From Lachnospiraceae bacterium UBA1760 (GTDB taxonomy: Bacteria; Bacillota; Clostridia; Lachnospirales; Lachnospiraceae): DNA of 64,000 nucleotides. The stretch's first letter is position 1. Each line of letters starts with the position of its first letter. The position numbers and the translations under genes were made by a program. This document shows positions 2,109 to 55,076 of this stretch, piece by piece. The notes beneath the pieces were generated by a model. The model had not been told where the DNA came from, did no database searches, and worked only from the letters and a program-made list of their open reading frames with translations. The stretch is taken from NCBI GenBank assembly GCA_002314775.1, contig DCHE01000013.1, forward strand, positions 5,500 through 69,499. The letters are read 5' to 3'.

Positions 2109-3503
2109 ATGAATACTCATATGAATAAAAAGAAATTAGTTGTTATTTTATTTCTTATAGTAGCAGCGGCATTTCTGAATGTTTTTATCTTTATGAAGAT
2201 GTTCAAGGTAAATCCGGACGAAGAAAAGCTGTATATAAGAATGACAGTGGCATCGGATGCTCTGGATGCATATCAGTCAAACTATGCGGTTCAGGGAATC
2301 TACACTGCGGAGGGAATGTCCGAGTGCCAGATGAATGAGGTGGGAAAGAAGCTCACTATGGACTTTGAGACTGCCTATACAGACACATATTCGTTCTACT
2401 TAGGACACTGGCCTGCTCATATTAAGATATATGATATCAGTTTATTCTCGGCTGGAGTGAAGGTTAATATTCCTTTTGATGTAGTTATGGCAGGGACCAT
2501 GAATGAAGCGGTTTTAAATGCAGAGGTAAGAGATGGAGCACTTAACCTTGATGTAAATGAATTCTATCCTACAATCGAGTTTAATTACGATTCAAGTGTT
2601 GCGAAGACGGCAGTTAGTGATGCTTTAAACAGCAGACATATCAGATACTCAGTTTTACTCTGTATTCTTATTGATCTTGTTGTACTGTATATCATAAGGA
2701 ATCTGAAGGTTATAAAGGAGCTTTACAGAAATCTCAGATATGACAGAAAGCTTATTCTTAGCCTTGCAAAGAATGATTTCAAGACAAAGTTTGCCGGTTC
2801 ATATTTCGGTATTGTGTGGGCTATTGTTCAGCCACTCATAACCATCGTTGTGTACTGGTTTGTGTTCCAGGTTGGACTTAGAACACAGAATATGAACAAC
2901 TTCCCATTTGTACTCTGGCTTATGTGTGGTCTTGTTCCATGGTTTTATTTTTCGGATGCACTCGGTTCAGGAACCAATGCACTTACCGATTACAGCTACC
3001 TGGTTAAGAAGGTAGTATTCAAGATAGAGGTTCTTCCGATTGTGAAGATTTTATCGGCACTTATTGTCAATACCTTCTTTATTGTGTTTATTATCTTCGT
3101 TCTTGCGTGCTATGGTTATACACCTGATATTTATACAATTCAGATTGTTTATTATGTAGTTTGTAATATTGCACTTGTTATGTCACTGACATATATTACC
3201 AGTGCTGTCATCATTTTCTTTAAGGATTTGGGACAGATTATCGGTATTATCCTTCAGATTGGTATATGGATTACACCAATTCTCTGGGATGCAAGTATTA
3301 TCTCACAGAAGCTCGATACCATATTAAAGATTAATCCGGTTTACTACATTGTAAATGGATTTAGAGATGCTCTTCTTACAAAGCACTGGGTTCATGAGAA
3401 CCTTGCGTGGACCTTTGTATTCTGGAGCATGGTTGTGCTTCTTTATATTTCAGGAAAGAAACTATTTACCAGGTTGCAGGTTCATTTTGCTGATGTACTT
3501 TAA
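2109..3503 (+). CDS. ABC-2 type polysaccharide export permease (Wzm/TagG/RgpC-like) with a ~200-aa N-terminal extension
   Basis: The C-terminal ~260 aa looks like a full Wzm: YRNLRYDRKLILSLAKNDFKTKFAGSYFGIVWAIVQP followed by six hydrophobic segments. Residues 1-~205 add a TM helix, a ~145-aa soluble segment and a second TM helix, all in one uninterrupted frame. Confidence 0.85.
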   Translation: MNTHMNKKKLVVILFLIVAAAFLNVFIFMKMFKVNPDEEKLYIRMTVASDALDAYQSNYAVQGIYTAEGMSECQMNEVGKKLTMDFETAYTDTYSFYLGHWPAHIKIYDISLFSAGVKVNIPFDVVMAGTMNEAVLNAEVRDGALNLDVNEFYPTIEFNYDSSVAKTAVSDALNSRHIRYSVLLCILIDLVVLYIIRNLKVIKELYRNLRYDRKLILSLAKNDFKTKFAGSYFGIVWAIVQPLITIVVYWFVFQVGLRTQNMNNFPFVLWLMCGLVPWFYFSDALGSGTNALTDYSYLVKKVVFKIEVLPIVKILSALIVNTFFIVFIIFVLACYGYTPDIYTIQIVYYVVCNIALVMSLTYITSAVIIFFKDLGQIIGIILQIGIWITPILWDASIISQKLDTILKINPVYYIVNGFRDALLTKHWVHENLAWTFVFWSMVVLLYISGKKLFTRLQVHFADVL

Positions 3504-3539: not shown

Positions 3540-4373
3540 ATGAAGGTTCTTGTTACAGGTGCTGCGGGATATATTGGCAGACATGTAGTTGATAAGCTTA
3601 TTGAAAGAGGCGTAGAGGTAATTGCCGCAGATATACGTTATGACGGAGTAAATGAAAAGGCAAAGAGAGCAGACATTAATATATTTGAGGATGATAAGGA
3701 CATCTTTAAGAAGGCTGGAGAGCCAGATGTTCTTGTTCATATGGCATGGAGAAATGGCTTCGTTCACAATGATATGAGCCATCTTGTTGACTTCCCTAAG
3801 CATTTTACATTCATTAAGAATATGGTTGAGGGTGGTCTTAAGCAGGTTGTAGTTATGGGTACAATGCATGAGGTTGGATATTACGAGGGCGCAATTGATG
3901 CAGATACTCCTTGTAATCCAAGGTCATATTACGGTGTGTCAAAGAATGCACTTAGACAGCTTACACTTATGCTTTGCCAGGATAAGGGAGTTACCTGCCA
4001 GTGGCTTAGAGCATATTATATCTTAGGAGATGATTTAAAGAGCAATTCTATCTTCTCTAAGATTACTCAGGCTGCAAATGATGGAAAGAAGGAGTTCCCA
4101 TTTACAACAGGAGAGTGCAAATATGACTTTATCTCAGTTGATGATCTTGCTTACCAGATTGCCGCAACAGCTACTCAGACTGAGGTTAGCGGAATAATTA
4201 ACTGTTGTTCTGGAAAGCCTGTTGCTCTTGGAGAGAGAGTTGAGCAGTTTATAAAGGATAACAACTTTGATATCAAGCTTCAGTATGGAGTTTTCCCAAG
4301 CAGAGCATATGATTCACCTGCAGTATGGGGCGACAGTAGTAAGATTGAAGAGATAATTAAGATAAATCCTTAA
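3540..4373 (+). CDS. NAD(P)-dependent extended-SDR epimerase/reductase (sugar-nucleotide modifying)
   Basis: GAAGYIGRH Rossmann motif at the N-terminus and a YxxxK catalytic pair (YYGVSKNA). Start chosen at the ATG preceded by aggagg. Confidence 0.8.
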   Translation: MKVLVTGAAGYIGRHVVDKLIERGVEVIAADIRYDGVNEKAKRADINIFEDDKDIFKKAGEPDVLVHMAWRNGFVHNDMSHLVDFPKHFTFIKNMVEGGLKQVVVMGTMHEVGYYEGAIDADTPCNPRSYYGVSKNALRQLTLMLCQDKGVTCQWLRAYYILGDDLKSNSIFSKITQAANDGKKEFPFTTGECKYDFISVDDLAYQIAATATQTEVSGIINCCSGKPVALGERVEQFIKDNNFDIKLQYGVFPSRAYDSPAVWGDSSKIEEIIKINP

Positions 4374-5700: not shown

Positions 5701-6663
5701 ATGAATGGTGAAAACAAGGAAAGCCGGGGAAACATAGATAATATGGATAATATAGATAATATAGATAGTATGGTAAAGATAAATTATGAATACTACAGTG
5801 GTTCAGACCTTTACTTAGACGGTTCAGAGGATACCCTGCTTGACATTGTTACAAATTATACTAAAGAAGAGTATAGTAGTGTTATAGAGGAGAAGAAGGA
5901 CTGGGCAATTCTCTATCATCTCTCTGAGGTGAGAGGGAATATTGTGAGTTTTCTCCCGATAACAAAGGAGGATGACGTGCTTGAGATTGGAGCCGGATGC
6001 GGCGCAATCACAGGCACACTTGCTGATATGGCAAGGAGTGTTGACTGCATTGAGCTCTCTAAAAAGAGAAGTCTTGTCAATGCAGTTAGAAACAAAGAAT
6101 ATGACAATATCACTATAAATGTAGGCAATTTTCAGGATATAGAGCCTAACATTGAAAAAAAGTATGATTATATCACACTTATCGGCGTACTTGAGTATGC
6201 TGCAAGCTACATAGCTGCAAAGGAGCCATATGTAGAATTTTTAAAGATAATTAAGAAGCATTTAAAGGAAGACGGAAAGCTGATTATCGCTATAGAGAAT
6301 AAATATGGTCTCAAATACTTCGCAGGTTGCAGAGAGGATCATCTTGCAACCTTCTTTTCGGGTATAGAGGGTTATATGAATTGTGATTCGGTAAGAACCT
6401 TCTCTAAAAATGGCCTTGAAAAGCTATCGAAGGACGCTGGCTATAAGGACATTGAATTCTATTATCCGTACCCTGATTATAAGCTGCCACTTGCGATTTA
6501 CTCGGATGATTTTCTTCCGGAGGCGGGAGAGCTTAATGTAAATCTCAGAAATTTCGACAGTGACAGAATGCTCCTTTTTGATGAGAGCAATGCGTTTGAC
6601 AATATTATTTCAGATGGAATGTTTGACTTTTTCTCCAATTCATTCCTTGTTTTGATTGGGTAA
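5701..6663 (+). CDS. Class I SAM-dependent methyltransferase
   Basis: Motif I VLEIGAGCGAITGTLA with downstream acidic residues (IELS, and ITLIGVLEY as motif IV-like). Good RBS ggagg. Confidence 0.8.
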   Translation: MNGENKESRGNIDNMDNIDNIDSMVKINYEYYSGSDLYLDGSEDTLLDIVTNYTKEEYSSVIEEKKDWAILYHLSEVRGNIVSFLPITKEDDVLEIGAGCGAITGTLADMARSVDCIELSKKRSLVNAVRNKEYDNITINVGNFQDIEPNIEKKYDYITLIGVLEYAASYIAAKEPYVEFLKIIKKHLKEDGKLIIAIENKYGLKYFAGCREDHLATFFSGIEGYMNCDSVRTFSKNGLEKLSKDAGYKDIEFYYPYPDYKLPLAIYSDDFLPEAGELNVNLRNFDSDRMLLFDESNAFDNIISDGMFDFFSNSFLVLIG

Positions 6664-6675
6664 GAGGTAGTAGCT

Positions 6676-8400
6676 ATGGAAAAAGTAATCTTTGCAAAGT
6701 ATGTAAATGACAGAGGCGAAAAGTACAGACTTAGAACAGAAATTGTAAAGCATGAAGACGGTTCTAGAAGTGTAAGAAAGCTTCCATGCGGAAAATACGG
6801 CATGGACCGATTAAGATATATAGAGAAAACCTGCAGAGTACTCACAGAGGAGTTTTCTGGAAGCTTTTTAAAGATTAATAAGGTTGAGCTTTCTTACGAC
6901 AGACTAAATATTGATTATGTTGAAGGCAATTCCCTTGCATATGAGGTTGAAAAATGTGAGGAGCAAAATGATGTTAAGGCTTATGTGAACCTTGTCACAG
7001 GCTTTGCAGATGAGCTTAGGAGAATTGCAAGGGAGGATTTTACTGTTACTGATTCCTTCACTGAGGTATTTGGCGAGGTGCCAGCGGGCATTTCTGACAA
7101 AAGCTTTAAGGTGAGTGACATTGATCTTATCTTCAGCAATGTAATTGTAAAAGATGGAAAATATACAATAATAGATTACGAGTGGACATATCATTTTTCA
7201 GTGCCACTTGGATATATTATGTACAGAATATATAAGTACTCTAAGAAGCCTAAGGAGGTATTCCTGGCTGATGAAGAATATAAGAGAATACTTGGAATAG
7301 ATGATACACTTATACCGGTGTATGAGAGGATGGAGGAGTCTTTTCAGGCGAGCACAGTCAAGGGACACGCTCCTTTGTGGAGACTTTATGACACGATAGG
7401 AAAAGGTCTCTATAATCCTCAGGAGGAGATGCTTAAGTCGGCGGAGGAGCTTGAACTTAGGCGTATCCAGATAAAGAAGGGCTACGGCACAGAGAGGGAA
7501 GAGGAGAACGACTATATCTTCCCAATGCCAGATATAAATGGAGATATTACAATAGATATAAAGGTTGACTCTGAGATTAAATTCCTCCAGATAGCCCCGG
7601 CTTCTAGAAGGTGTAGTGTATACCTTAAGGAGTTTACCGGTTTTAACGGAGAGAGATATCAGGTAGACTGGGATTCAAATGGAGTTAGTGCTGACAAAGA
7701 GCTGATAACCTTTGACACCACTAGTCCTCAGCTTTGGACCTATGATTTTAGAGAGGGAATAACCTCATTAAGAGTTGTTCTGAATATAGATTATCTTGGA
7801 AATACTAATACTGCTAAGTATGCAGAGCTTCAGAATATCGCTAAAATGAGCGAGAATAAGGACACGGAGATAAGTAGTCTTAAGGAGATGATGGACTCGT
7901 TATCTTTAGTTCTTTCTGAGACAAAGGATAAGCTTGCAAGTCTGGAAGAGGAAAGGGATGGTCTGGCTGAGCAGGCAAAGAATCTCTCAGAAATTTGTGA
8001 GGGACGACAAAATGAGATAAATCTGCTCAAGGCGTGCGTTTCCGATAAGGATAAAATGCTTGAAGATAAGGATAAAAAGCTTGAGGAAAAGATGCAATGG
8101 ATATATCAGAGGGATGATGTAATAAGAGCGAAGATGAACGAGATTTCTCTTCATAAAAAGGAGAAAAAACGCACTGACAAGATAAGCGAAGAAAATGCCA
8201 GAACGATAAATGAACTTGGAGAGAAAATTGATGGTATGAGCATAGAGCTTGACAGCTTGAAGGGAGAAATTGAGAGCTTATGTCAGAAGCTTGGAGAGAC
8301 TGAACAGAAATACCAGGAACTTGCCAAGGAGCATGGCAGGGTTGTAAACTCAACCTGCTGGAAGATAACCAAACCACTTAGAAAGATTAAGAGACACTAA
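6676..8400 (+). CDS. Kinase-fold-like N-terminal domain + long C-terminal coiled coil + basic tail (WbdD-like terminator/ruler candidate)
   Basis: Residues 150-169 read DLIFSN(x10)IDYE, matching the D-x4-N catalytic loop plus metal-binding IDxE of APH/choline-kinase-type folds. Residues ~385-560 are heptad-like and charged (SLKEMMDSLSLVLSETKDKLASLEEERDGLAEQAKNL...IDGMSIELDSLKGEIESLCQKLGETEQKYQELAKE). The protein ends in WKITKPLRKIKRH. The function is inferred. Confidence 0.55.
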   Translation: MEKVIFAKYVNDRGEKYRLRTEIVKHEDGSRSVRKLPCGKYGMDRLRYIEKTCRVLTEEFSGSFLKINKVELSYDRLNIDYVEGNSLAYEVEKCEEQNDVKAYVNLVTGFADELRRIAREDFTVTDSFTEVFGEVPAGISDKSFKVSDIDLIFSNVIVKDGKYTIIDYEWTYHFSVPLGYIMYRIYKYSKKPKEVFLADEEYKRILGIDDTLIPVYERMEESFQASTVKGHAPLWRLYDTIGKGLYNPQEEMLKSAEELELRRIQIKKGYGTEREEENDYIFPMPDINGDITIDIKVDSEIKFLQIAPASRRCSVYLKEFTGFNGERYQVDWDSNGVSADKELITFDTTSPQLWTYDFREGITSLRVVLNIDYLGNTNTAKYAELQNIAKMSENKDTEISSLKEMMDSLSLVLSETKDKLASLEEERDGLAEQAKNLSEICEGRQNEINLLKACVSDKDKMLEDKDKKLEEKMQWIYQRDDVIRAKMNEISLHKKEKKRTDKISEENARTINELGEKIDGMSIELDSLKGEIESLCQKLGETEQKYQELAKEHGRVVNSTCWKITKPLRKIKRH

Positions 8401-12165: not shown

Positions 12166-12182
12166 AATGAGTGGTATTTCAG

Positions 12183-14015
12183 ATGTTTAGAGTGATTAAG
12201 AAAGCATTTAACCCTGTCAGCTACTACAGACTTTTCTCGTATATCAAGAGAAAAGGCTTTAAGGGCATTATGGGAAAGTTTAAAAGTGGTATGAGAGAGG
12301 GCAATTCGCCGGACGAGATGTATGAGCTGTGGTTTTTGAAGCACAGAGTGAAGGACGCAGAGCTGCTTGAGGAGGCAAAGCATAACTTTTCGTACAGTCC
12401 AAAGATCAGCATTCTTGTGCCAACCTACAATACTCCTAAGAGATTCCTTAAGGAGATGATTGACTCGGTAATCGGTCAGTCATATTCAAACTGGGAGCTT
12501 TGCATTGCTGACGGAAGCACAGATGAAAAGACAAAGAAATGTTTAAGGGAGTATGCTGAGAAGGACAAGAGAATAGTAATTACCTGGCTTGATAAGAACT
12601 ACGGAATTTCAGGGAATACAAACAAGGCACTTGAGATTGCAACTGGTGACTTTATCAGTATGCTTGACCATGATGATGTCTTTGAGAAGGACCTTCTTTT
12701 TGAGGTTGTCTCAGCACTTCAGGATAAGAGTGCAGATATGGTTTACACTGATGAGGATAAGATTGTTGGAAAAAGAAGAAGCTGGAGCTATAAGGATCCT
12801 AACTTCAAGCCGGATTTCAGTATTGATTTACTGAGGTCTCACAATTACATTACTCATTTTGTGGCAATAAAGAAGGATATTATTGACGAGATAGGCGGCT
12901 TTAGAAGCGAGTTTGACGGATCGCAGGATTTTGACCTTCTGCTTCGTTCGGTAGAGAAGGTCCTTGCGAGAAAAGGAAAAATCCTGCATGTGCCTAAGGT
13001 GCTTTACCACTGGAGAATTCACAGCCAGTCTACTGCAGGTAATCCTGAAAGTAAGCTTTACTGCTACGAGGCTGGAAGAAAAGCTCTTGTTGAGCATTAT
13101 GAGAGACTTGGCATTAAGGCAAATGTTGAGATGACTGATATGTGGGGACTGTACCATACCAGATATGAGACAGTTGGCAATCCACTTCTTTCTATTATTA
13201 TTCCTAACAAGGATCATATTGATGACCTTGAAAAGTGTATAGTTTCACTTGTTGAAAATAGCACCTACAAAAATGTTGAGTTTGTAGTTGTTGAGAATAA
13301 CAGTGAGGATGAAAAAACCTTCAAGTACTACGAGGAGCTTGAAAAGAGATTCGACAATGTGAGAGTTGTTTACTGGAAAGGCATTTTCAACTATGCAGCT
13401 ATTAATAATTTTGGAGTAAAGGAAGCAAAGGGAGATTACCTTTTACTTCTTAACAATGATACAGAGCTTATTCTTCCTGACTCAGTGGGAGATATGCTTG
13501 GAATCTGCATGAGAGAAGAGGTTGGTGTAGTTGGACCGAAGCTTCTTTTTGCAGATGACACTATTCAGCATGCTGGTATTGTTCTTGGCTTTGGAGGCTT
13601 TGCAGGACACGTATTTACCCAGCTTACTGATGATAACCTTGGCTTTATGATGAGACCAAGAATAAACTGCAATTACAGTGCAGTGACAGGAGCCTGCCTT
13701 ATGACAAAGCGTTCTGTCTATGAGGAGGTCGGAGGTCTTACAGAGGATTTCGTTGTAGGACTTAATGATGTTGATTTCTGTATGAAGGTGAGAAAGAAGA
13801 ATTATTTTATCACCTATGATGCCTTTGCAAAATGGCATCACTATGAATCTAAGTCAAGAGGCTATGAGGACACTCCAGAGAAGAAGAAGAGATTTCAGGG
13901 TGAGATAGATTTATTCCAGTCACTTTGGGGCGAGGAGTTAAAGAAGGGAGATCCTTTCTACAATCCTAATTTCCTTGTCACAAGAGCACCATTTACATTA
14001 CATCCAGAGGACTAA
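12183..14015 (+). CDS. Two-domain family-2 glycosyltransferase (paralog 1 of 3)
   Basis: Domain A: ISILVPTYNTP...DHDD...YTDEDK. Domain B: LSIIIPNKD...LLLLNNDTE...NDVDFC...HHYESKSRG. Start at 12183 chosen by alignment with the paralog 2 N-terminus (MFRVIKKAFNP vs MISKVKKIFNP). Confidence 0.85.
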   Translation: MFRVIKKAFNPVSYYRLFSYIKRKGFKGIMGKFKSGMREGNSPDEMYELWFLKHRVKDAELLEEAKHNFSYSPKISILVPTYNTPKRFLKEMIDSVIGQSYSNWELCIADGSTDEKTKKCLREYAEKDKRIVITWLDKNYGISGNTNKALEIATGDFISMLDHDDVFEKDLLFEVVSALQDKSADMVYTDEDKIVGKRRSWSYKDPNFKPDFSIDLLRSHNYITHFVAIKKDIIDEIGGFRSEFDGSQDFDLLLRSVEKVLARKGKILHVPKVLYHWRIHSQSTAGNPESKLYCYEAGRKALVEHYERLGIKANVEMTDMWGLYHTRYETVGNPLLSIIIPNKDHIDDLEKCIVSLVENSTYKNVEFVVVENNSEDEKTFKYYEELEKRFDNVRVVYWKGIFNYAAINNFGVKEAKGDYLLLLNNDTELILPDSVGDMLGICMREEVGVVGPKLLFADDTIQHAGIVLGFGGFAGHVFTQLTDDNLGFMMRPRINCNYSAVTGACLMTKRSVYEEVGGLTEDFVVGLNDVDFCMKVRKKNYFITYDAFAKWHHYESKSRGYEDTPEKKKRFQGEIDLFQSLWGEELKKGDPFYNPNFLVTRAPFTLHPED

Positions 14016-14043
14016 AAAAGCTAAAAAGGATTGCGAGAAAACT

Positions 14044-15867
14044 ATGATTTCCAAGGTGAAAAAGATATTTAATCCAAACAGTGTCAGAAGACTTGTAAAT
14101 TATGTCTCTGAAAATGGATTAAAGGGTGTCGGAGAGAAAATTAAAAAAGGCATGGGCGAGGGAACCGTTCTTTCGGATATATATCCTGAATGGTTTTTGA
14201 GTACCCGTGTGTCAAATGACGAATTGGAAAAGCAGAGAGAGGCTCATTTTGATTATGAGCCTCTTATCAGTATTCTTGTGCCTACGTATAATACTCCTGA
14301 GAAATTTTTAGAAGAGATGATAGAGTCCTGCATCAGTCAGTCCTACAAAAACTGGGAGCTTTGCATTGCAGATGCAAGTACAGATTATGGGACAAGAAAC
14401 GTGCTGAAGGCATATATGGCAAAGGATGCAAGGATAAAAATTACCTGGCTCAGAGATAATCTTGGAATTTCAGATAATACCAACGAGGCACTGAAGCTTG
14501 CGAAGGGTGAATACATTGGTCTTCTTGATCATGATGATGTGATTGAGCCAGATTTATTTTATCAGCTTGTACTTATGCTTCAGGATACCGACTATGAATT
14601 TATATATACCGACGAGGATAAGATTATCGGAAAGGGCGACAAATGGAGGTATGCAGAACCACATTTCAAGCCTGATATCAGCATAGATTTGCTCAGATCC
14701 CACAATTATATAACTCATTTTGTTCTGGTTAAATCGGACGTCATGAGTGAGATTGGCGGACTTCACAAGGAGTTTGATGGTTCACAGGATTATGATTTGA
14801 TCCTAAGAGCCTATGATATTGTTACAAAAAAGGGTAAGAAGATTGGACATGTTCCAAGGGTGCTATACCACTGGAGGGTTCATGAGGGCTCCACAGCAAA
14901 GAATCCGGAAAACAAGATGTACTGCTACGAGTCCGGTAGAAACGCAATTATGGCCGAGCTTGAGAGAAATGATATCAGGGCTTACGTTGACACAAGCGAG
15001 CTTTGGGGTATTTACAACGTAAAGTACAGGTCGAAGTGTAATCCCCTTTTATCTATTGTAATTCCTGTGAGAAAGGAAGAATCCCAGGTTGATACCTGCA
15101 TTCAGACAATAATTGATAAGAGTGATTATAAAAATACAGAGTTTATTATTGTTCTTCCAAAGATTGCTTCTGAAAAGCTTGTGAAAAAGCTGGTAAGTCT
15201 TAAATCAAAGTACAAGAATGTTTACATTGCCAGAAGCATCAGGAATAATTATTCGGCAATGGTCAATCTGGCGGTTGCATCAGCTAAGGGAGAGTATGCG
15301 TTACTTTTAAATGAGAATGTTTCAATGATAAAGCCAGATACTATATCCAATATGGCTTCTATGCTTGAGAGAGAAGAGGTTTGCGCAGTTGGTGCAAAGC
15401 TACTTACTCACGAGGACAGGATATACCATGCAGGAATAATCCTTGGAGCAAGGGAGCGAATTGTTGAGGTTCACGAGGGACTTAAGGATGATGAGTATGG
15501 ATATATGGAGAGGGCAATTTTAAATGGCAATTATTCCGCCTATTCCTCAGAATGTCTGATGCTAAAGAAGAAGGATTATCAAAGGGTGCTTGGCTTTGAT
15601 GAGTCGCTCAGCGAGGGCGCAGGTATGGTTGATTTTGGACTTAAGCTTACAAAGGAAGGCCGGCTTATTACATATGCAGCTGGACTTAAATGGTATATAG
15701 CCAGAGATAAGAGTGAGAGGATTATTTCAGAGGAAGAAAAGGAGCTTCTCATAAGTCGCTGGAGCGAGGTGTTTGAGAAGGGCGATCCGTACTATAATCA
15801 GTCATTCTCAAGGAACCAAAAGCCATTTATGGTTGAAATTGATACAAATAACGAAGTGAAAGAATAA
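14044..15867 (+). CDS. Two-domain family-2 glycosyltransferase (paralog 2 of 3), C-terminal domain degenerate
   Basis: Domain A is intact (ISILVPTYNTP, LLDHDD, YTDEDK). Domain B reads LLLNENVS, AGMVDFG and WYIARDKSE where paralog 1 has NNDTE, NDVDFC and HHYESKSRG. The ORF-track start at 13975 overlaps paralog 1 and was rejected. Confidence 0.85.
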   Translation: MISKVKKIFNPNSVRRLVNYVSENGLKGVGEKIKKGMGEGTVLSDIYPEWFLSTRVSNDELEKQREAHFDYEPLISILVPTYNTPEKFLEEMIESCISQSYKNWELCIADASTDYGTRNVLKAYMAKDARIKITWLRDNLGISDNTNEALKLAKGEYIGLLDHDDVIEPDLFYQLVLMLQDTDYEFIYTDEDKIIGKGDKWRYAEPHFKPDISIDLLRSHNYITHFVLVKSDVMSEIGGLHKEFDGSQDYDLILRAYDIVTKKGKKIGHVPRVLYHWRVHEGSTAKNPENKMYCYESGRNAIMAELERNDIRAYVDTSELWGIYNVKYRSKCNPLLSIVIPVRKEESQVDTCIQTIIDKSDYKNTEFIIVLPKIASEKLVKKLVSLKSKYKNVYIARSIRNNYSAMVNLAVASAKGEYALLLNENVSMIKPDTISNMASMLEREEVCAVGAKLLTHEDRIYHAGIILGARERIVEVHEGLKDDEYGYMERAILNGNYSAYSSECLMLKKKDYQRVLGFDESLSEGAGMVDFGLKLTKEGRLITYAAGLKWYIARDKSERIISEEEKELLISRWSEVFEKGDPYYNQSFSRNQKPFMVEIDTNNEVKE

Positions 15868-15868
15868 T

Positions 15869-17659
15869 ATGAATAAAGACACATTTTACGGAGTAAAAAA
15901 TAATATTAAAAAGACTGGAGCCTACATTAAAAAGGTAGGAATAAGGAGCACAGCCAGCAGAGTTAAGTCATATATAACAACTCACAACAGATATATGAAG
16001 TGGCACGAGCAAGGTGTACTGTCTGAGAGTGAGAGAAAAGAGCACAGAGAGCTTTCGGATAAGCTTAATTTTAAGCCGAGGATAAGTATTATCGTGCCGG
16101 TATTTAGGACAAAGGATGTTTTTCTTAAGCAGCTGATTGATTCAGTTATTGCCCAGACCTATCCTAATTTTGAACTTGTGCTTGCTGACGGTAGTGCAAA
16201 TAAGGATGAATCCAGCCGGATTTCAAGGCTGATAAGACATAATTATCCGGAGGAGGAGAGAATTGTCTATAAGCTTCTTTCTGATAATTTTGGTATAGCT
16301 GGCAATACAAATGAAGCAATTAAGGCTGCTACAGGGGAGTGGCTTGCATTTCTTGATCATGACGATTATATAGATGAGGATGCACTTTTCCAGATGGCAA
16401 AGCTTCTTAATGAGAAGCCAGGCCTAAAGCTTATCTACACTGATGAGGACAAATGCAACTTTGATGGTACAAGGTATTTCTATCCCCATTTCAAGCCGGA
16501 CTTTAATCTTGATTTGCTTAGAGCAAGCAATTATATATGTCATTTTCTATTTGTGAGAAAGGATGTTGCAAAAAAGGTCGGAAATATTAGAAGTGATTTT
16601 GACGGAGCTCAGGATTATGATTTTGTGCTAAGGTGCGTTGAGGAGATTGACGACGAGAGAAAGATTGGACATGTTGCAAAGCCGCTTTATCACTGGAGAG
16701 TTCATGAGGAATCTACAGCAGGAAGTCTTGACTCAAAGGGCTATGCCAGAAATGCGGGCAAAAAGGCGCTTGTTGAGCATCTTTTGAGACAGGATATCAA
16801 GGGTGAGGTGCTTCTTTCGGAGGAGGGTGAGTTCTTTAGAGTGAGATACTGTCCGGAGGAAAAACCACTTGTTTCTATAATAATATATTCTGAGAAAAGT
16901 CTGGATGCAAAAAATCTGATTATGTCCATTGGCGAGCAGGAGTATAGGAATTATGAGATACTTCTCTATTCTGGAGATTCTGAGATACGTAAAGAATTTA
17001 AGGATATAAGCATTCTTGCGAAGAAGCTTTCGGTTTACGAGTGGAAGAATGAGCCGATTATTTGTGATGTGTATAACCACGCAGTAAAAAAATGCAAGGA
17101 TGAGCTGATACTGTTTGCTGACAATAATATAGTTCTCAGAGATACCTCTACACTTGGTGAGCTCGTCTCATTTATGTCGAGAGAAGAGGTGGGCGCCTGC
17201 TCGGGAAGAATATATAATCCTTACGGAGGACTTTTCCATGCTGGAATGTTCCTGGGTGGGGATATGGCATTAAACAGAAGCTTCTATAATAAGAAGGAAG
17301 CGGACGGAGTGTATTTCGATAGAAGCAAGATGTCTCAGGACTTCACCTGCCTTGGTATTGAGTTTCTTATGATTAAGAAATCTATGTTTAAGCTTGCCAA
17401 GGGCTTTGACAGGACACTGGGAGAGAAATTTGCCGCAGCAGATTTTTGTCTGAAGCTCAGGGTTGACGGATACCTGAATGTCTATGCGCCAAATGCGAAG
17501 GCAACCTATACTGGAAAGCCTGGTCACACAGAAGCTGATGAGACAAGAATAAGACTGTTTAAGGAAAAATGGTCCGAGCTTCTTGAAAATGGTGATCCTA
17601 ATTACAATCCGAATTTGTCCTTGAACAGGACGGATTACTCAATTGATGTTAAAAAATAG
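15869..17659 (+). CDS. Two-domain family-2 glycosyltransferase (paralog 3 of 3), C-terminal domain degenerate
   Basis: Domain A is intact (ISIIVPVFRT, FLDHDD, YTDEDK, LYHWRVHEEST). Domain B reads LFADNNI, FAAADFC and ATYTGKPGH. Confidence 0.85.
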   Translation: MNKDTFYGVKNNIKKTGAYIKKVGIRSTASRVKSYITTHNRYMKWHEQGVLSESERKEHRELSDKLNFKPRISIIVPVFRTKDVFLKQLIDSVIAQTYPNFELVLADGSANKDESSRISRLIRHNYPEEERIVYKLLSDNFGIAGNTNEAIKAATGEWLAFLDHDDYIDEDALFQMAKLLNEKPGLKLIYTDEDKCNFDGTRYFYPHFKPDFNLDLLRASNYICHFLFVRKDVAKKVGNIRSDFDGAQDYDFVLRCVEEIDDERKIGHVAKPLYHWRVHEESTAGSLDSKGYARNAGKKALVEHLLRQDIKGEVLLSEEGEFFRVRYCPEEKPLVSIIIYSEKSLDAKNLIMSIGEQEYRNYEILLYSGDSEIRKEFKDISILAKKLSVYEWKNEPIICDVYNHAVKKCKDELILFADNNIVLRDTSTLGELVSFMSREEVGACSGRIYNPYGGLFHAGMFLGGDMALNRSFYNKKEADGVYFDRSKMSQDFTCLGIEFLMIKKSMFKLAKGFDRTLGEKFAAADFCLKLRVDGYLNVYAPNAKATYTGKPGHTEADETRIRLFKEKWSELLENGDPNYNPNLSLNRTDYSIDVKK

Positions 17660-32748: not shown

Positions 32749-32788
32749 AAAAAGTGCCAAGTCTCAAATGTGGGCTTGGCACTTTTTT
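32749..32788. terminator. Bidirectional intrinsic terminator between gltD and pfp
   Basis: agtgccaag/cttggcact stem flanked by an A-run upstream and a T-run downstream. Confidence 0.8.
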
Positions 32789-32856
32789 AGTTCATTCCGG
32801 TCAGATGTGGAATGTCGATATTCTAATTCATTCCGGTCAGATGTGGAATGTCAATG
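32788..32856 (-). repeat. Tandem 36-bp duplication of the pfp 3' end
   Basis: tagttcattccggtcagatgtggaatgtcgat (32788-32819) and taattcattccggtcagatgtggaatgtcaat (32824-32855) differ at 2 of 32 positions. Confidence 0.9.
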
Positions 32857-37269: not shown

Positions 37270-39285
37270 ATGTTTGAAAACATTAGTAAAGTAAGTTTGA
37301 TATATGCGGCAATACTCGCTGTGTTTCTCATATTCCTTGTTGTAATATCGGTAGTAATCCTTAAGAAGAGTGATGAGGATGAAGATGATTACGACGATTA
37401 TGATGAAGAAGAGTATTACGAGGAGGATAAGAAGAAAAAGAAGAAAAAATACGAGGATGATGACTTCGAGGAAGAAGAGGAGGAGTATCAGAATCGAAAG
37501 GGCAGAAGGAACGATGATTATGCGGAGGACGAAGCATATTCTGAGTATCCAGAGGACGATCAGTATAGCGATGAATACTCTGACAATTATAGCGAAGACT
37601 ATGATGACGGTTATGATGATGGCTATGATGACGGCTATGACGAGAATTATAATGAGAATAATGACAGCTTTGAGAATGAATCTGAGAATGACAGCGCATT
37701 CCCAGATAGCGTAGTCAATAAGCATGATATCGTGCAGAGTGTTCAGAATATGGATAAGTCAAACGGTTTTTCTGACTCAGCATTTTCTGATTCGGCATTC
37801 GCTGATTCGGCATTTTCTGATTCAGCCTTTGATGATAAGGAAGTTAATGAGGCTAAGGTTGAGGAGGCTCATGGAATAGAGCTTACTTCAAGCGATATAG
37901 ATATGAGCACTGTTGCTGAGGATGAAAAAGAAATATCAGCAAGAGAGATAGCTGATAAGGTTGCTGCTGGCAATACAGTACCACTTCCAACAGACGAGAT
38001 TAAGAGCGCAATTAAGGAGCAGGCTAATAATAATGAAAAGCCAGCTGAGCCTGTGGCAAAGACTGATAATGTATTTGACAAGAACTATATCGATACTGCT
38101 CAGTTTGATCTTATTAAGGAAAAGGTTTCTGAGAGTGTATTCGGTAAGGTTAAGAAAAACCAGCCTGTAAAGGAGGCTGCTCCAGTTAAAGCTGAGGAGC
38201 CTAATGATAAGATTGAAGAAGCTGCAACAAAAGAAATTGCAACAGAGGATACTGCAAATAATTTTGCAGCAGAAGCAATTGAGGCTTCTAAGTCTGCGTT
38301 AGCTGAGGCACCTGAGTCGCCAGTTGAAGAAGCAGCGTCAGCTGAGACTTCTGCAGAAGCAGTTGGTGAGGATTCTGCTTTCGGTGAGGATACAGCCTTT
38401 GGTGAGGATTCGGCATTTGGCGAAGATACAGCCTTTGGCGAGGATTCAGCATTTTCTGATTCAGCCTTCGAGGATTCAGATTTTACTGAAGAAACAGCTG
38501 AGGATGATATTGATTTTGATGCAAGCTTTGATGAGTTGTTTGGCGAAGACGAATTTGATGAGGGACAAAAAGAGAATGCGCCAGTATTTACTGAGCACAC
38601 AAAGCTTAACCCTTCAAATGATACAAAGCTTACAATTAACCCTGTAAATGCAGTTGGAATTAACACAGTTAACTCAGAGGAGAAGATTAATGTCACCAAT
38701 GAGGAGGCTGGAATCACAGATATGGATGAGCTTGAGGATTACTTGAGTGAGAATCCGGTTCCAACCAGAAAGGGCAAGAAAAAGAAGAAGAAGCAGAGAG
38801 CAAATGGCGACGAGTTCGTCGAGAAGTTTGGAAGCTTCGAGCTTAAGTTTAATGTTGGAGATTCCTTCTGGTATAACAGCCAGGATATTGCTGAGTGTAG
38901 AAGAAAGGATGACATTTATTATTACTGTCATTACTTCGATGCTCCAGAGGAGGCGATTATACCACTTATTACCGAGATGTACGATTGTGCATTTGTAAAG
39001 ACTGAGGAGATTCAGTTTATTGCATATGGTATTGAGTATAAGACTATGGGCTTTAAGGAGATTATTGAAGCGGACATCAATACAGGCTTCGATAAGAATA
39101 AAGCAAGCAAAACTCCAACCAGAGAGGATAGAATTCTTATCTACAAGAAGTGGATAAGCTACGTTGATAAATTCCTTGAGACAATAGTAATCATTTCGAA
39201 TGAATACAATAAGGAGTATATCAAGAAGAGACTTTACGAGTATGGAAAGAATGATGTAGACGTTCTTCTTTACAGTCCAGAGTAA
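37270..39285 (+). CDS. Membrane-anchored hyper-acidic repeat protein of unknown function
   Basis: A good RBS and a long frame. One N-terminal TM helix (LIYAAILAVFLIFLVVISVVIL followed by KK). About 430 aa are D/E/Y/S-rich and low-complexity, with two arrays of [DE]-[ST]-A-F motifs. The ~170-aa C-terminal domain has normal composition (FELKFNVGDSFWYNSQD...LLYSPE). Confidence 0.7.
   Translation: MFENISKVSLIYAAILAVFLIFLVVISVVILKKSDEDEDDYDDYDEEEYYEEDKKKKKKKYEDDDFEEEEEEYQNRKGRRNDDYAEDEAYSEYPEDDQYSDEYSDNYSEDYDDGYDDGYDDGYDENYNENNDSFENESENDSAFPDSVVNKHDIVQSVQNMDKSNGFSDSAFSDSAFADSAFSDSAFDDKEVNEAKVEEAHGIELTSSDIDMSTVAEDEKEISAREIADKVAAGNTVPLPTDEIKSAIKEQANNNEKPAEPVAKTDNVFDKNYIDTAQFDLIKEKVSESVFGKVKKNQPVKEAAPVKAEEPNDKIEEAATKEIATEDTANNFAAEAIEASKSALAEAPESPVEEAASAETSAEAVGEDSAFGEDTAFGEDSAFGEDTAFGEDSAFSDSAFEDSDFTEETAEDDIDFDASFDELFGEDEFDEGQKENAPVFTEHTKLNPSNDTKLTINPVNAVGINTVNSEEKINVTNEEAGITDMDELEDYLSENPVPTRKGKKKKKKQRANGDEFVEKFGSFELKFNVGDSFWYNSQDIAECRRKDDIYYYCHYFDAPEEAIIPLITEMYDCAFVKTEEIQFIAYGIEYKTMGFKEIIEADINTGFDKNKASKTPTREDRILIYKKWISYVDKFLETIVIISNEYNKEYIKKRLYEYGKNDVDVLLYSPE
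37771..37830 (+). repeat. 4 x 15-bp in-frame repeat encoding (S/A)DSAF
   Basis: tctgactcagcattt / tctgattcggcattc / gctgattcggcattt / tctgattcagccttt. Confidence 0.9.
38365..38484 (+). repeat. 5 x 18-bp (GED[ST]AF) plus 2 x 15-bp in-frame repeats
   Basis: ggtgaggattctgctttc, ggtgaggatacagccttt, ggtgaggattcggcattt, ggcgaagatacagccttt, ggcgaggattcagcattt, then tctgattcagccttc and gaggattcagatttt. Confidence 0.9.
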
Positions 39286-51646: not shown

Positions 51647-53137
51647 ATGAGCAAAAGTACAGAGTTAAAACTAAAGAAAACTGGCAAACTACTTAAGAAA
51701 GAACTATTTAGCAAAAAGTACATCGTAAGAAACATTCTTGCATTACTTGTGATAGTATCAATTTCTATTATTATTGGTACATCAGTTGCAGGCAATGGAA
51801 TCAAGAGTGCAGATGTTGTAACAGATGACGCATCAGGAACTAATCTTGATACAGCAGAGATATCAATTACAGAGAATATTTACGAGATCACACCAACTGA
51901 GGCATCATGCATATTGGACAGCTCGATTGAGACATTAAAAGCAGATATGGTTGAGCCTGAGGTTGATAAGGTTGCAGTTGATGTTAACCAGGTTTCGCAG
52001 ATTAATGCAATTGATTTATCAGGTAAAGTTGTATCTAATATTGATAATCTCAATGTTAGAAAGGCTGGCGACGAATCTTCAGAGGTTATTGGCCGTATGA
52101 TGGAGTATTCCGTTGCAAAGCTTGTTGAGGAAGGTGATGAGTGGACACTCATTGAATCAAACGGACTCAAGGGCTATGTTAAGAATGATTATATTCTTAT
52201 CGGAGATGAGGCAGCAGCAATTAGTGATAAGTGCCTTAAGTCAATCGGTACTGTAACAGCAGACGAGCTCAGAATCAGAGAGAAGGCTAACACTACTAGT
52301 GATGTTGTGGCAATTGCCGAGAAGAATGACAAGTTTGTAGTAGTTAAGGAGTACTCAAGCAAGGATTGGTATTGTGTAAGACTCTACAACGGTAACTATG
52401 GTTTTATCGCTACAGATTACGTTTCACTTAATGACGGCTTTGAAAATGCAGTAACAATTGCTAAGGTTGATGCATTAAAGAATGAGGATAAGAAGGTTAA
52501 GGAGAAACCAAAGGTAACTCAGGTTGCTTCTTCATCAAGTACAGGAAAGACATCAGGTTCTTCTAGTTCAAGTTCTTCGACCTCTTCAACAACAAGCGGT
52601 TCAAAGACAAATACTTCAACATCAACAAGTACTTCGACATCAACAAGTACATCATCAAAGACAGAGACAAAAACAGAAACAAAGACAGAGACAACAACAA
52701 CTACTACTACCACTACATCTGATAATCCATACGGTGGTAACAGAGTATATCCAGCTACTGTAAACAGAGGTAGCTTCGGACTTAGTGATGAAGATATTTA
52801 CATGATAGCTTGTGTTGTATATGCTGAGGCAGGTAACCAGAGCTATGAAGGAAAGCTTGCTCTTGCTAACGTAATTCTTAACAGACTTGCTTCTGGTAAG
52901 TGGGGCAACACAGTTCATGGAGTTCTTTATGCAAAGAACCAGTTTACAGCTGTCAATGGAAAGTGGTATAAGCAGGCATTTGAAGGAGGTCCACCAGATT
53001 CTTGTATGAAGGCTGCTCAGGAAGCTGCAGGTGGAGTTAACAATTGTGGAACTTTCTTAAGCTACAGAACATTAAGAATTGCCAAGTTTACAACCTATTC
53101 ATCATACATGATAATAGGAAATCATTGTTTCTTCTAA
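51647..53137 (+). CDS. Membrane-anchored cell-wall hydrolase (two SH3b-like domains, Ser/Thr-rich linker, SleB/CwlJ-type Hydrolase_2 domain)
   Basis: TM helix ILALLVIVSISIIIGTSVAG. SH3b-like NLNVRKAGDESSEVIG...GYVKNDYI and ELRIREKANTTSDVV...GFIATDYV. C-terminal IACVVYAEAGNQSYEGKLALANVILNRL...NQFTAV. Start at ATG 51647. Confidence 0.8.
   Translation: MSKSTELKLKKTGKLLKKELFSKKYIVRNILALLVIVSISIIIGTSVAGNGIKSADVVTDDASGTNLDTAEISITENIYEITPTEASCILDSSIETLKADMVEPEVDKVAVDVNQVSQINAIDLSGKVVSNIDNLNVRKAGDESSEVIGRMMEYSVAKLVEEGDEWTLIESNGLKGYVKNDYILIGDEAAAISDKCLKSIGTVTADELRIREKANTTSDVVAIAEKNDKFVVVKEYSSKDWYCVRLYNGNYGFIATDYVSLNDGFENAVTIAKVDALKNEDKKVKEKPKVTQVASSSSTGKTSGSSSSSSSTSSTTSGSKTNTSTSTSTSTSTSTSSKTETKTETKTETTTTTTTTTSDNPYGGNRVYPATVNRGSFGLSDEDIYMIACVVYAEAGNQSYEGKLALANVILNRLASGKWGNTVHGVLYAKNQFTAVNGKWYKQAFEGGPPDSCMKAAQEAAGGVNNCGTFLSYRTLRIAKFTTYSSYMIIGNHCFF
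52528..52720 (+). repeat. Coding low-complexity Ser/Thr tract with (TS)n and (TETK)3 microrepeats
   Basis: Encodes SSSSTGKTSGSSSSSSSTSSTTSGSKTNTSTSTSTSTSTSTSSKTETKTETKTETTTTTTTTTS. Confidence 0.9.
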
Positions 53138-53148
53138 AGAACTTTAAA

Positions 53149-53177
53149 CCAGGTACAATTTCGTACCTGGTTTTTTT
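53149..53177 (+). terminator. Intrinsic terminator of the SleB-like gene (outer end of the palindrome's left arm)
   Basis: ccaggtac-aatttc-gtacctgg followed by T7. Confidence 0.85.
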
Positions 53178-53567
53178 ATGCCCAAATCCACACTTTAGTG
53201 AATTATGTGCTGCCTTAGTGATTTGACGACTGCTTCTATGCATAGGCCTCTCCAATGAACGGCTTCGCAAATTTTTGCTGGCAATCTTAGCCCCCTTGAA
53301 CCGTTCATGGCGCGTCGCGAAGTGTATTTGCCAGAGAGGTGGAGATGATAGAACAATAATGCCAATTATTGTTCTATCAGATACGCCTAACTGGCAAATG
53401 GTTCGCGGAGGCGGCGCGCCTTCGAGAGATGAACGAGTGAAAGGGGGCTAAGATTCCCGCAAAAATTTGTGTTAGTGATTGGAGAGGCCTATGCATAGAA
53501 GCAGATTTTAGTTTGCGAAGGCAGCACATAAAAGATATAAACGAATAAAGATGGGGGCTTTGGGCAT

Positions 53568-53602
53568 AAAAATACGGCCAGGTACGTAAGTGTACCTGGC
53601 CG
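53568..53602 (-). terminator. Intrinsic terminator of argG (outer end of the palindrome's right arm)
   Basis: On the minus strand, cggccaggtac-acttac-gtacctggccg followed by tattttt. Confidence 0.8.
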
Positions 53603-53616
53603 GGTTAGCTTTTGAA

Positions 53617-54840
53617 TTATTTGTTCTTTTCTTCACGCTGAAGCTTGTGCATTGCACGAACCTTCATTGGAAGTCCGAAGAGTGTGATGAAGCCTGTAGC
53701 ATCTGTGTGATCATAGAGGTCACCAGTTGTGAAGCTTGCAAGAGACTCTGAATAGAGAGAGTATGGAGAAGTTGTACCAGCCTTGATTATGTTACCCTTG
53801 TAAAGCTTGAACTTAACCTCACCTGTTACATATTCCTGTGTAACGTCTACAAATGCTGAGAGTGCTTCACGAAGTGGGCAGAACCACTTTCCTTCGTATA
53901 CAAGGTCAGCAAGCTTAGCACCAATCTGCTTTGAGTATGCAAGTGTATCTCTGTCAAGGATGAGCTCCTCAAGCTGCTTGTGTGCCTCAACTAAGATAGT
54001 TCCGCCTGGAGTCTCATAAACACCACGAGACTTCATACCAACTACACGGTTTTCAACGATATCAATGATACCAACACCATGCTTTCCGCCAAGTGTGTTG
54101 AGTTCTCTGATAATGTCAGAGGTCTTCATCTTCTTGCCATTTAATGCAACTGGAATACCCTTCTCGAAGTTAAGAGTGATATACTCTGGTTCGTCAGGAG
54201 CATTCTCAGGAGAATTACCAAGAACTAAAAGATCTGAATAGTTTGGCTCGTTTGCTGGGCTCTCAAGCTCAAGACCCTCGTGGCTGATATGCCAGATATT
54301 ACGGTCACGGCTATATGAGTGCTTTGCGTCGAATGGAAGATCGATTCCGTGAGCCTTACAGTAATCAAGCTCAGCCTCTCTTGAATCCATCTGCCACTTT
54401 GGATCACGCCATGGAGCGATAATCTTAATGTCAGGAGCAAGTGCCTTTATTGAAAGCTCGAAACGAAGCTGATCATTTCCCTTACCAGTAGCACCGTGAC
54501 AAATTGCAACAGCACCCTCTTTACGAGCAATTTCAACAAGTCTCTTTGCGATAACAGGTCTTGCAAATGAAGTACCAAGAAGGTACTTATTCTCGTAAAC
54601 TGCATTAGCCTTTACACATGGCATAATGAAGTCATCACAGAACTCATCAACAACATCCTCGATATAAAGCTTTTCAGCTCCTGAATACTTTGCTCTCTCA
54701 GAAAGACCATCAAGCTCATTGCCCTGTCCAACATCGATACATGCACAAACTACATCGTAATCATAAGTTTCCTTTAACCATGGAATAATGGCAGTTGTAT
54801 CAAGACCGCCTGAGTAGGCAAGAACAACTTTTTCCTTCAT
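53617..54840 (-). CDS. argG: Argininosuccinate synthase
   Basis: [58 protein letters not shown]. Confidence 0.95.
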
Positions 54841-54894
54841 AAATATATTCCTCCTAAAAGTCTTATTTCAACGGGAAATCCCGTAATTAAACTT

Positions 54895-54923
54895 AATATA
54901 TAATAATTAGAAGAGATATGCAA
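54895..54923 (-). promoter_or_regulatory. Candidate sigma-A promoter of argG
   Basis: Minus strand: TTGCAT, 17-nt spacer, TATATT. The -35 lies in a 15-bp block that is the exact inverted copy of the argC -35 block. Confidence 0.45.
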
Positions 54924-54930
54924 GTGTTTT

Positions 54931-55030
54931 ATATGCAAATATAATGATAATATTCATTAAATATGCATAAAATGTGAATAATATACATAATATATGAATA
55001 TTTTGAAAAAACACTTGCATATTATTCAAA
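54931..55030. promoter_or_regulatory. Cluster of ARG-box-like half-sites (putative ArgR/AhrC operator region)
   Basis: An AT-rich stretch with repeated TGAATA/TATTCA and TGCATA/TATGCA half-sites: tatgcaaatataatga, aatattcattaaatatgcata, tgtgaataatatacat, tatgaatattttgaaa, ttgcatattattcaaa. It sits between divergent arginine-biosynthesis genes. Confidence 0.5.
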
Positions 55031-55043
55031 GTAGGATTATAAT
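55015..55043 (+). promoter_or_regulatory. Candidate sigma-A promoter of argCJB
   Basis: TTGCAT, 17-nt spacer, TATAAT. Confidence 0.5.
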
Positions 55044-55076
55044 TCCAAAAAGATGAGTAATAAGGAGGAGTATAGG

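Follow-up and report, generated by a model that had tools for sequence, protein, structure and literature searches.

A 457-bp imperfect palindrome between a SleB-like hydrolase gene and argG in a Lachnospiraceae bacterium, with its centre found in both orientations

In Lachnospiraceae bacterium UBA1760, the spacer between two converging genes, one on the + strand for a SleB-like cell-wall hydrolase and one on the − strand for argininosuccinate synthase (argG), is occupied by a long imperfect palindrome, the centre of which was found in both orientations in a single faecal sample. The palindrome spans positions 53146-53602 of the stretch of 64,000 nucleotides analysed here (contig DCHE01000013.1; the whole stretch is called the window below), that is, 457 of the 479 bp that separate the two stop codons. 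Each of its ends has the features of an intrinsic terminator for the adjoining gene, and its central 143 bp, enclosed by a perfect 15-bp inverted repeat, exist both as read in the window and reverse-complemented. Our preferred reading, to which we give a probability of about one half, is that of a local inverted duplication, or of a head-to-head pair of repeats, which would act as a double terminator and whose centre would flip by recombination between the arms or by template switching. The window is core chromosome, with rhamnan and cell-wall polysaccharide genes, tRNA synthetases, gatAB, glutamate synthase and argGCJB. A natural palindrome of 457 bp in such a spacer, with its centre in both orientations within one gut community, offers a rearrangement that can be observed. 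In bacteria, palindromes of great length are commonly regarded as unstable.

A palindrome that extends well beyond two terminator stems

A previous reading of this DNA, made from its letters only (hereafter the sequence-only reading), had described a ~450-bp imperfect palindrome across the whole convergent spacer, and this was borne out. The symmetry centre is a 4-nt loop, GCCA, at 53361-53364. Global alignment of the left arm (53146-53362) with the reverse complement of the right arm (53363-53602) yielded 175 matches, 35 mismatches and 37 gap columns, i.e. 71% identity over all columns and 83% over the ungapped ones, so that the arms align well outside the terminator stems. Both the 27-mer and the 14-mer pairs reported earlier are present and perfect (Table 1), and the smaller blocks CAAATTTTTGC, AATCTTAGCCCCCTT (a perfect 15-mer), CGTTCAT, ATTTGCCAG and (TTTTT)ATGCCCAAA are present too. 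An apical stem is also there, its length being 15 bp (53346-53360 / 53365-53379) and not 14 bp as first proposed.

As RNA, the + strand of the palindrome folds with an energy of −267.2 kcal/mol (z = −23.1), and its − strand with one of −239.3 kcal/mol (z = −22.5); with DNA parameters the value is −158.6 (z = −22.4). None of the shuffled sequences folded as well, whether RNA or DNA parameters were used. The element ranks first among the quasi-palindromes of 796 kb of DNA (the window plus 87 Lachnospiraceae loci). GC content is 44 to 53% in its interior, which had been noted as GC-richer, compared to 28 to 32% at its left edge, 17 to 26% in the argG-argC spacer and 17 to 35% in ordinary spacers of the window; GC skew is positive in the region of the palindrome. 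Ordinary convergent spacers in the window measure 3 to 82 bp and contain a single hairpin each, whereas here ~400 bp of self-complementary DNA separates two terminators.

The outermost segment of each arm had been taken for the terminator of the adjoining gene, correctly so, as both hairpins passed a terminator scan: on each side the coding strand has a GC-rich stem-loop followed by a T-run soon after the stop codon, at a distance of 9 nt for the hydrolase gene and 14 nt for argG. The first hairpin spans 53146-53173; the second, read on the − strand, runs from 53602 to 53575 and is followed by TATTTTTAT. They have in common the stem CCAGGTAC/GTACCTGG, as had been claimed. Judging from these sequence features, the palindrome would act as a back-to-back double terminator, one for each converging gene. 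In this it resembles ordinary back-to-back intrinsic terminators, in which a GC-rich hairpin and a T-run likewise follow each gene. It is however far longer than these, and its inverted-repeat score is 128.5, against a median of 25 for the DNA 3′ of argG at 76 other Lachnospiraceae loci. The same median led us to reject the idea that long hairpins are a general feature downstream of argG.

The central 143 bp exist in two orientations

The 15-bp repeat that borders the centre has only two matches in the whole window when up to 2 mismatches are allowed, namely its copies at 53283-53297 and 53441-53455. We call A the window as it stands, and B a model of it in which 53298-53440 is reverse-complemented between these two copies. 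Both were compared to contigs of the Joint Genome Institute (JGI) assembly 3300001598, which was produced with Velvet from 2×100-nt Illumina reads of the faeces of a six-year-old Asian elephant (PMC4160196). One contig, L082, comes from the argG side; it tracks the right outer arm of the window as far as the 15-bp repeat, and then continues into the left inner arm in + orientation. Over ~5.5 kb, it differs from model B by two synonymous single-nucleotide polymorphisms in argG and at no position in the element, while 35 differences separate it from A. The other contig, L083, comes from the hydrolase side and shows no difference with A in 5735 bp, but 34 with B. In L082 the repeat arms are unchanged and what lies between them is exactly reverse-complemented, as in an inverted-repeat spacer inversion.

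The last 99 nt of L082 and L083 are identical. This tail starts with base 1 of the 15-bp repeat, and in front of it each contig has bases of its own flank (GCTGGC or GCGGG). Together with one base of the flank, the tail makes up one read length (100 nt), which means that there are single reads in which one flank or the other runs into the same end of the inner segment. Moreover, as both contigs read the loop as GCCA and then GA, one molecule cannot yield both joins. Orientations A and B coexist among genomes that differ at no more than 4 in 10,000 bases, in one sample of elephant faeces. A DNA-level recombination site had been listed among three explanations in the sequence-only reading, and it is directly supported by these data: the central 143 bp were found inverted, with a crossover within the perfect 15-bp repeat, and orientation A was present in the same sample.

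The palindrome is not an assembly error

All five short-read contigs of other assemblies that reach the palindrome (L081 to L085) end inside it, an observation that could point to a foldback chimera or to a mis-join at a contig end. We consider this highly improbable. With 35 mismatches and 37 gap columns between them, the arms are too different to have been produced by a foldback chimera, and the flanks are two different unique genes. The flanking proteins recur unchanged on contigs of other assemblies, and these contigs rebuild the palindrome from each side: L081, from the Logan assembly of SRR5323877, follows the window from the argG side down to 53346 with three differences, all inside argG, and L083 follows it from the hydrolase side up to 53381, so that these two contigs of separate assemblies overlap by 36 nt across the apex. 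The suspicion of a foldback artefact, raised earlier, was rejected, since the arms are imperfect and independent contigs tile the palindrome from both sides.

Contigs L081, L082 and L083 each stop within 3 nt past the apical hairpin. Of the Logan contigs, the two that come from the left end exactly at 53283, where the 15-bp repeat begins, and the end of L081 coincides with the final base of the apical stem. Such end points may reflect a loss of coverage induced by the hairpin, or more heterogeneity, such as flipping of the loop. As ends at 53283 and 53346 could not be derived from a simple two-orientation de Bruijn graph, they were not used as evidence of heterogeneity. Palindromes of this kind break short-read assemblies, as five contigs out of five end inside this one.

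A likely by-product of the palindrome

In the reading that we favour, two diverged inverted copies of a ~220-bp unit, joined head to head, would fill the convergent spacer, each unit ending in a GC-rich hairpin and T-run that would serve as the rho-independent terminator of the adjoining gene. Because perfect blocks of 14 to 27 bp have been retained, the arms could pair and exchange through them. Any such exchange would invert whatever lies between the exchanging blocks, and one occurring within the 15-bp repeat would reverse-complement the central 143 bp. Either the arms would recombine within one molecule, or replication would switch templates at the extruded hairpin. In kind, the element is a case of inverted-repeat spacer inversion, or of inverton-like flipping, combined with back-to-back terminators; both are known kinds.

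Hairpin-loop “flip-flop” inversions in plastid spacers offer a comparison. Template switching between imperfect inverted-repeat arms is described as a cause of spacer inversion in two papers (PMC8604942, PMC8794818), and such quasipalindrome-associated mutations share with our case the unchanged arms and the exact reverse complement between them. In most known cases the arms and spacers measure a few to tens of bases, whereas here the spacer is a 143-bp inner hairpin nested in a far larger palindrome.

Flipping of a segment between inverted repeats is also the property of invertons, such as E. coli fimS, the capsule promoters of Bacteroides, or cwpV/flgB of Clostridioides difficile. The element could be a programmed inverton, in which a site-specific invertase encoded elsewhere would flip the 143 bp through the 15-bp repeats, or through the ~45-bp imperfect repeats around them, as a phase-variation switch; an internal promoter or a small transcript could then be redirected toward argG or the hydrolase gene. 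It shares with known invertons a pair of short perfect inverted repeats around a segment in the range of 100-500 bp, as well as the presence of the two orientations in one population of near-identical genomes, as observed at contig level and through one flipped junction. For RecA-type recombination, a 15-bp repeat is short, which speaks for a dedicated enzyme. In addition, one of the adjoining genes encodes a cell-wall hydrolase, and surface-related genes are reported as common neighbours of invertons (PMC11892184).

Several observations nevertheless make us regard this programmed inverton as unlikely. The 40 open reading frames (ORFs) of at least 150 aa that were scanned or labelled in the window include no recombinase, transposase or phage gene, and the window contains no further copy of the 15-bp repeat. 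Known invertons depend on an invertase and place an orientation-dependent promoter or terminator upstream of the gene to be regulated; here the segment lies between two 3′ ends, with terminators insulating both sides. Its repeats belong to a 457-bp palindrome, much longer than themselves, which is not the case in described invertons, and the segment is itself nearly palindromic. The promoter-like sites of the segment (TTGCCA-18-AACAAT, at 53328-53357 on the + strand and 53397-53368 on the − strand) are weak (9/12) and mirrored on both arms, so that inversion should change little and the two states would be almost equivalent; we found no orientation-dependent regulatory element.

Since the segment is nearly symmetric and no invertase lies nearby, we most likely see in the flip a side effect of the palindrome rather than a regulated on/off switch, and the weak, mirrored promoter-like sites, as well as the position between two 3′ ends behind terminators, argue likewise that there is probably no regulatory switch. 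Read-based inverton detectors would call this element a regulatory switch, though, judging from its content, the flip may have no functional effect. Should the flip on the contrary be driven by an enzyme, or alter the fate of RNA at the 3′ ends of the two genes, argG and that of the hydrolase, phase variation would be extended to gene ends.

A number of points weigh against a by-product flip of a duplicated, neutral palindrome. One of the two junctions expected from an inversion was seen (right flank-inverted repeat-X), and the reciprocal one, left flank-inverted repeat-reverse complement of Y, was in no contig. An inversion is told from a conversion of one arm by just 2 nt past the apical stem. 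The data sets (JGI, SRR1221442 and SRR5323877) may not be independent, as the accession range of SRR1221442 makes it probable that this run comes from the elephant study of the JGI assembly (SRP040073). The GC content of the interior, above that of ordinary spacers, and the 10:1 excess of G·U-type mismatches on the + strand are not what a purely neutral DNA relic predicts. The gene of an invertase could lie outside the window, anywhere in the genome. Finally, there is no relative with the same gene junction by which a local duplication could be told from a pair of dispersed repeats.

Could the palindrome act as RNA?

A long hairpin RNA was also among the explanations of the sequence-only reading. 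An asymmetry between strands speaks for a functional RNA, namely a ~400-nt hairpin of the + strand, made by read-through from the hydrolase gene or from an internal promoter, which would serve RNase III as a substrate, act as a stabiliser, or form an antisense barrier against argG. In the orientation of the window, the minimum free energy structure contains 10 G·U pairs on the + strand compared to 1 on the − strand, and it is the + strand that has the lower energy (see above); similarly, mismatches between arms are compatible with G·U pairing 9 times on the + strand and 2 times on the − strand. The GC content of the interior, moreover, resembles that of coding DNA and not that of a spacer. We take the 10:1 ratio as a weak hint of constraint at the RNA level. 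Against such a function, the left terminator should halt most + strand transcription before the hairpin, and, with good intrinsic terminators at both gene ends, read-through should be limited in general. Part of the asymmetry could be caused by a leading-strand mutation bias, given the positive GC skew. Furthermore, the advantage of the + strand is gone in state B, in which the energies are −249.9 kcal/mol (+) and −256.6 kcal/mol (−), which means that the population tolerates its loss. All in all, an RNA function appears rather unlikely.

These four energies would also fit a combination of both ideas, in which a programmed flip of the inner hairpin decides which strand encodes a fully paired ~400-nt RNA hairpin. 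We hold this 3′-end inverton for quite improbable. If true, the flip would serve to adjust, for the argG mRNA as compared to the hydrolase mRNA, read-through, antisense transcription or RNase III processing, and phase variation would take place at gene ends instead of promoters.

A scan of 52800-53900 with Rfam 15 returned generic hairpins only, the best with 28.4 bits for a gathering score of 48.4. As all matches were below threshold, a known RNA family was rejected. As for proteins, the four stop-free frames of the element had no match in Pfam, and a HMMER search with the longest one (116 codons) against 1.84 billion representatives gave no match covering the arms. The matches of that frame were one repeat protein, aligned over residues 84-115 only (the antisense of the SleB-like 3′ end and its terminator), and a marginal one. 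A coding relic was rejected on these grounds.

Origin of the arms and hairpin repeats in other Lachnospiraceae

The remaining explanation of the sequence-only reading, a foldback element or a MITE (miniature inverted-repeat transposable element), was not supported. In its present form, this explanation says that a mobile repeat, or a head-to-head pair of dispersed repeats, landed in the spacer, and that its terminal hairpins now serve the host genes as terminators. No second copy of any block of the element was found in the rest of the 64-kb window. Neither the core (a 21-mer) nor the apical hairpin nor a gapped pattern of two blocks matched anything in 185,579 species-representative genomes or in metagenome and viral collections, and BLASTN of the element found nothing in plasmid and phage collections, nor in the 87 loci and the rest of the window. 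The flanks, …GAACTTTAAA on the left and CCGGGTTAGC… on the right, have no common direct repeat that would be a target-site duplication. The CCAGGTAC…GTACCTGG hairpins do form terminal inverted repeats, a property which is trivial for any palindrome. Loops of the two terminator hairpins match at 4 of 6 positions as inverted copies and at 0 of 6 as direct copies, and the hairpins are thus the ends of the arms rather than a duplicated target.

These searches were made in a poorly sampled lineage. The source species is outside the set of 185,579 representatives, where the best ArgG identity is 85% (Coprococcus, Eubacterium and Lachnospiraceae metagenome-assembled genomes). Among 80 ArgG loci at 79 to 85% identity, none was syntenic or carried the element, and the same was true of the loci of the two closest ArgG proteins in a set of 5.8 billion proteins. 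Neither a protein search with a spurious ORF of the element nor exact-match queries with three internal ORFs, argC and DegV added further samples.

In favour of a mobile origin, and by analogy only, hairpin repeats were encountered next to argG in other genera. In Coprococcus ammoniilyticus and the C. eutactus group, a nested hairpin of ~250-450 nt lies directly 3′ of argG, in a convergent spacer as well (fold z = −13). This spacer has sizes of 278, ~400 and 447 nt, with a common core of ~155-170 nt. Pairing within this core persists through two-sided changes, and does so too in an inverted paralog present in the longest allele. Two of the hairpin copies (L020 and L021) are 95.5% identical, compared to 81-85% at third codon positions of the flanking genes. 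A covariance model, R1, was built from the copies of this core and the inverted paralog. It revealed a dispersed ~155-nt repeat of which each genome has several copies, frequently arranged in tandem or inverted pairs, true members scoring 90 to 177 bits (Table 1). Conserved motifs of the R1 repeat are ATTATTCCGCAAG, CGGTAC·TAAG…CTAAG·ACCG and AAAAGGCTTGCTTCATAAT. It has no match in Rfam, and looks like an undescribed element of the MITE type or of the type of repetitive extragenic palindromic doublets (REPINs), or like a small RNA family. Its link with arg genes is an ascertainment bias, all loci having been fetched through argG. The size alleles of its spacers suggest that hairpin elements shape convergent spacers more widely in Lachnospiraceae.

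In Roseburia zhanii, two adjacent palindromic elements of ~250 bp, with further similarity to each other, were observed just upstream of argG (L006:3085-3832). Their repeats are a perfect one of 40 nt (3085-3124 / 3298-3337) and one of 41 nt with 95% identity (3581-3621 / 3792-3832). They possibly represent another foldback repeat family.

Membership of the window element in the family of the Coprococcus hairpin was tested and rejected: alignment gave a z of about 0, and the R1 model, run on the window with filters off, scored at best 12.5 bits, from three short hairpins. More generally, the element has in common with MITE, foldback and REPIN-like repeats, R1 included, that it is a long non-coding hairpin in a spacer, and inverted pairs of these give palindromes of similar size; unlike them, it has no detected multiple copies, no target-site duplication, and no similarity to R1 by sequence or covariance model. 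Since hairpin repeats do colonise such spacers in Lachnospiraceae, a mobile repeat is, by analogy, a conceivable though unlikely explanation of the element.

Features of the locus and minor observations

Coordinates of the genes, of the parts of the palindrome, and of the R1 copies are collected in Table 1.

Table 1. Features of the hydrolase-argG locus in the window, and positions of R1 copies in other loci
Feature	Position	Strand	Details
SleB-like cell-wall hydrolase gene	51647-53137	+	Hydrolase_2 PF07486 relatives, SH3 domains, Ser/Thr-rich linker; stop TAA 53135-53137
Intrinsic terminator of the SleB-like gene	53146-53180	+	stem AAACCAGGTAC / GTACCTGGTTT, loop AATTTC, T7; terminator scan
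Left outer arm	53174-53282		contains TTTTTATGCCCAAA, 14-mer, 27-mer, CAAATTTTTGC
Perfect 14-mer pair	53203-53216 / 53518-53531		arm comparison
Perfect 27-mer pair	53230-53256 / 53478-53504		CTGCTTCTATGCATAGGCCTCTCCAAT; contains ATGCAT, AGGCCT and a local 10-bp palindrome, CTATGCATAG
Perfect 15-bp inverted repeat, left copy	53283-53297		AATCTTAGCCCCCTT; crossover site of the observed inversion
Invertible central segment, 143 bp	53298-53440		A in the window, L081 and L083; reverse-complemented (B) in L082; holds GC-rich blocks
Apical hairpin	53346-53379		perfect 15-bp stem TGATAGAACAATAAT / ATTATTGTTCTATCA, loop GCCA
Perfect 15-bp inverted repeat, right copy	53441-53455		AAGGGGGCTAAGATT; partner of the left copy
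Right outer arm	53456-53574		partners of the 11-mer, 27-mer, 14-mer and TTTGGGCATAAAAA; extra bases compared to the left arm
Intrinsic terminator of argG	53565-53602	−	stem CGGCCAGGTAC / GTACCTGGCCG, loop ACTTAC, tail TATTTTTATG; terminator scan
argG (argininosuccinate synthase)	53617-54840	−	PF00764/PF20979; divergent from argC-argJ-argB
R1 copies in argG-downstream spacers	L090-L099, L020, L021		e.g. L090:3228-3675, L021:5205-5585
Further R1 copies	L117:1508-1661, 6631-6786, 6818-6973; L104:5460-5611; L116:5660-5815
Further R1 copy	L121:3141-3295	+
Further R1 copy	L121:3328-3483	−
Weaker R1 match, other Lachnospiraceae locus	L049:961-1113	−
Weaker R1 match, other Lachnospiraceae locus	L051:1136-1278	+

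Homologs of the SleB-like protein carry PF07486/PF08239, and the exact protein was found on 3 contigs; at full length, it has no relative above ~50% identity among 5.8 billion proteins. Its gene contains, at 52519-52713, a long low-complexity Ser/Thr-rich linker (SSSS, TSTSTS, TETKTETK, TTTTTTTT) which joins an SH3-like N-terminal part to the C-terminal hydrolase domain. On the other side of argG, the divergent argG-argC spacer (54841-55052), the low GC content of which was given above, includes an imperfect inverted repeat of ~107 nt with 72% identity (54916-55022), and may plausibly serve the divergent arg genes as a common promoter/operator region.

Repeated sequences were also noticed elsewhere in the window. 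Three consecutive paralogous genes for family-2 glycosyltransferases of ~600 aa occupy 12171-17659, with a period of ~1.86 kb and 60 to 83% nucleotide identity in blocks; they sit in the rhamnan/cell-wall polysaccharide cluster (RgpF, Wzt-type ABC transporter, dTDP-sugar enzymes). An ORF of 671 aa (37270-39285, + strand), without Pfam domain, encodes an acidic repetitive protein rich in Ser, Phe, Asp and Glu, and contains tandem repeats of 15 nt and 18 nt (37774-37865 and 38358-38465). Lastly, two tandem 35-nt repeats, 91% identical and each with a hairpin CATTCC…GGAATG, occupy the short convergent spacer between a gene similar to that of the glutamate synthase small subunit and a phosphofructokinase gene (32785-32855); they are probably a duplicated terminator.

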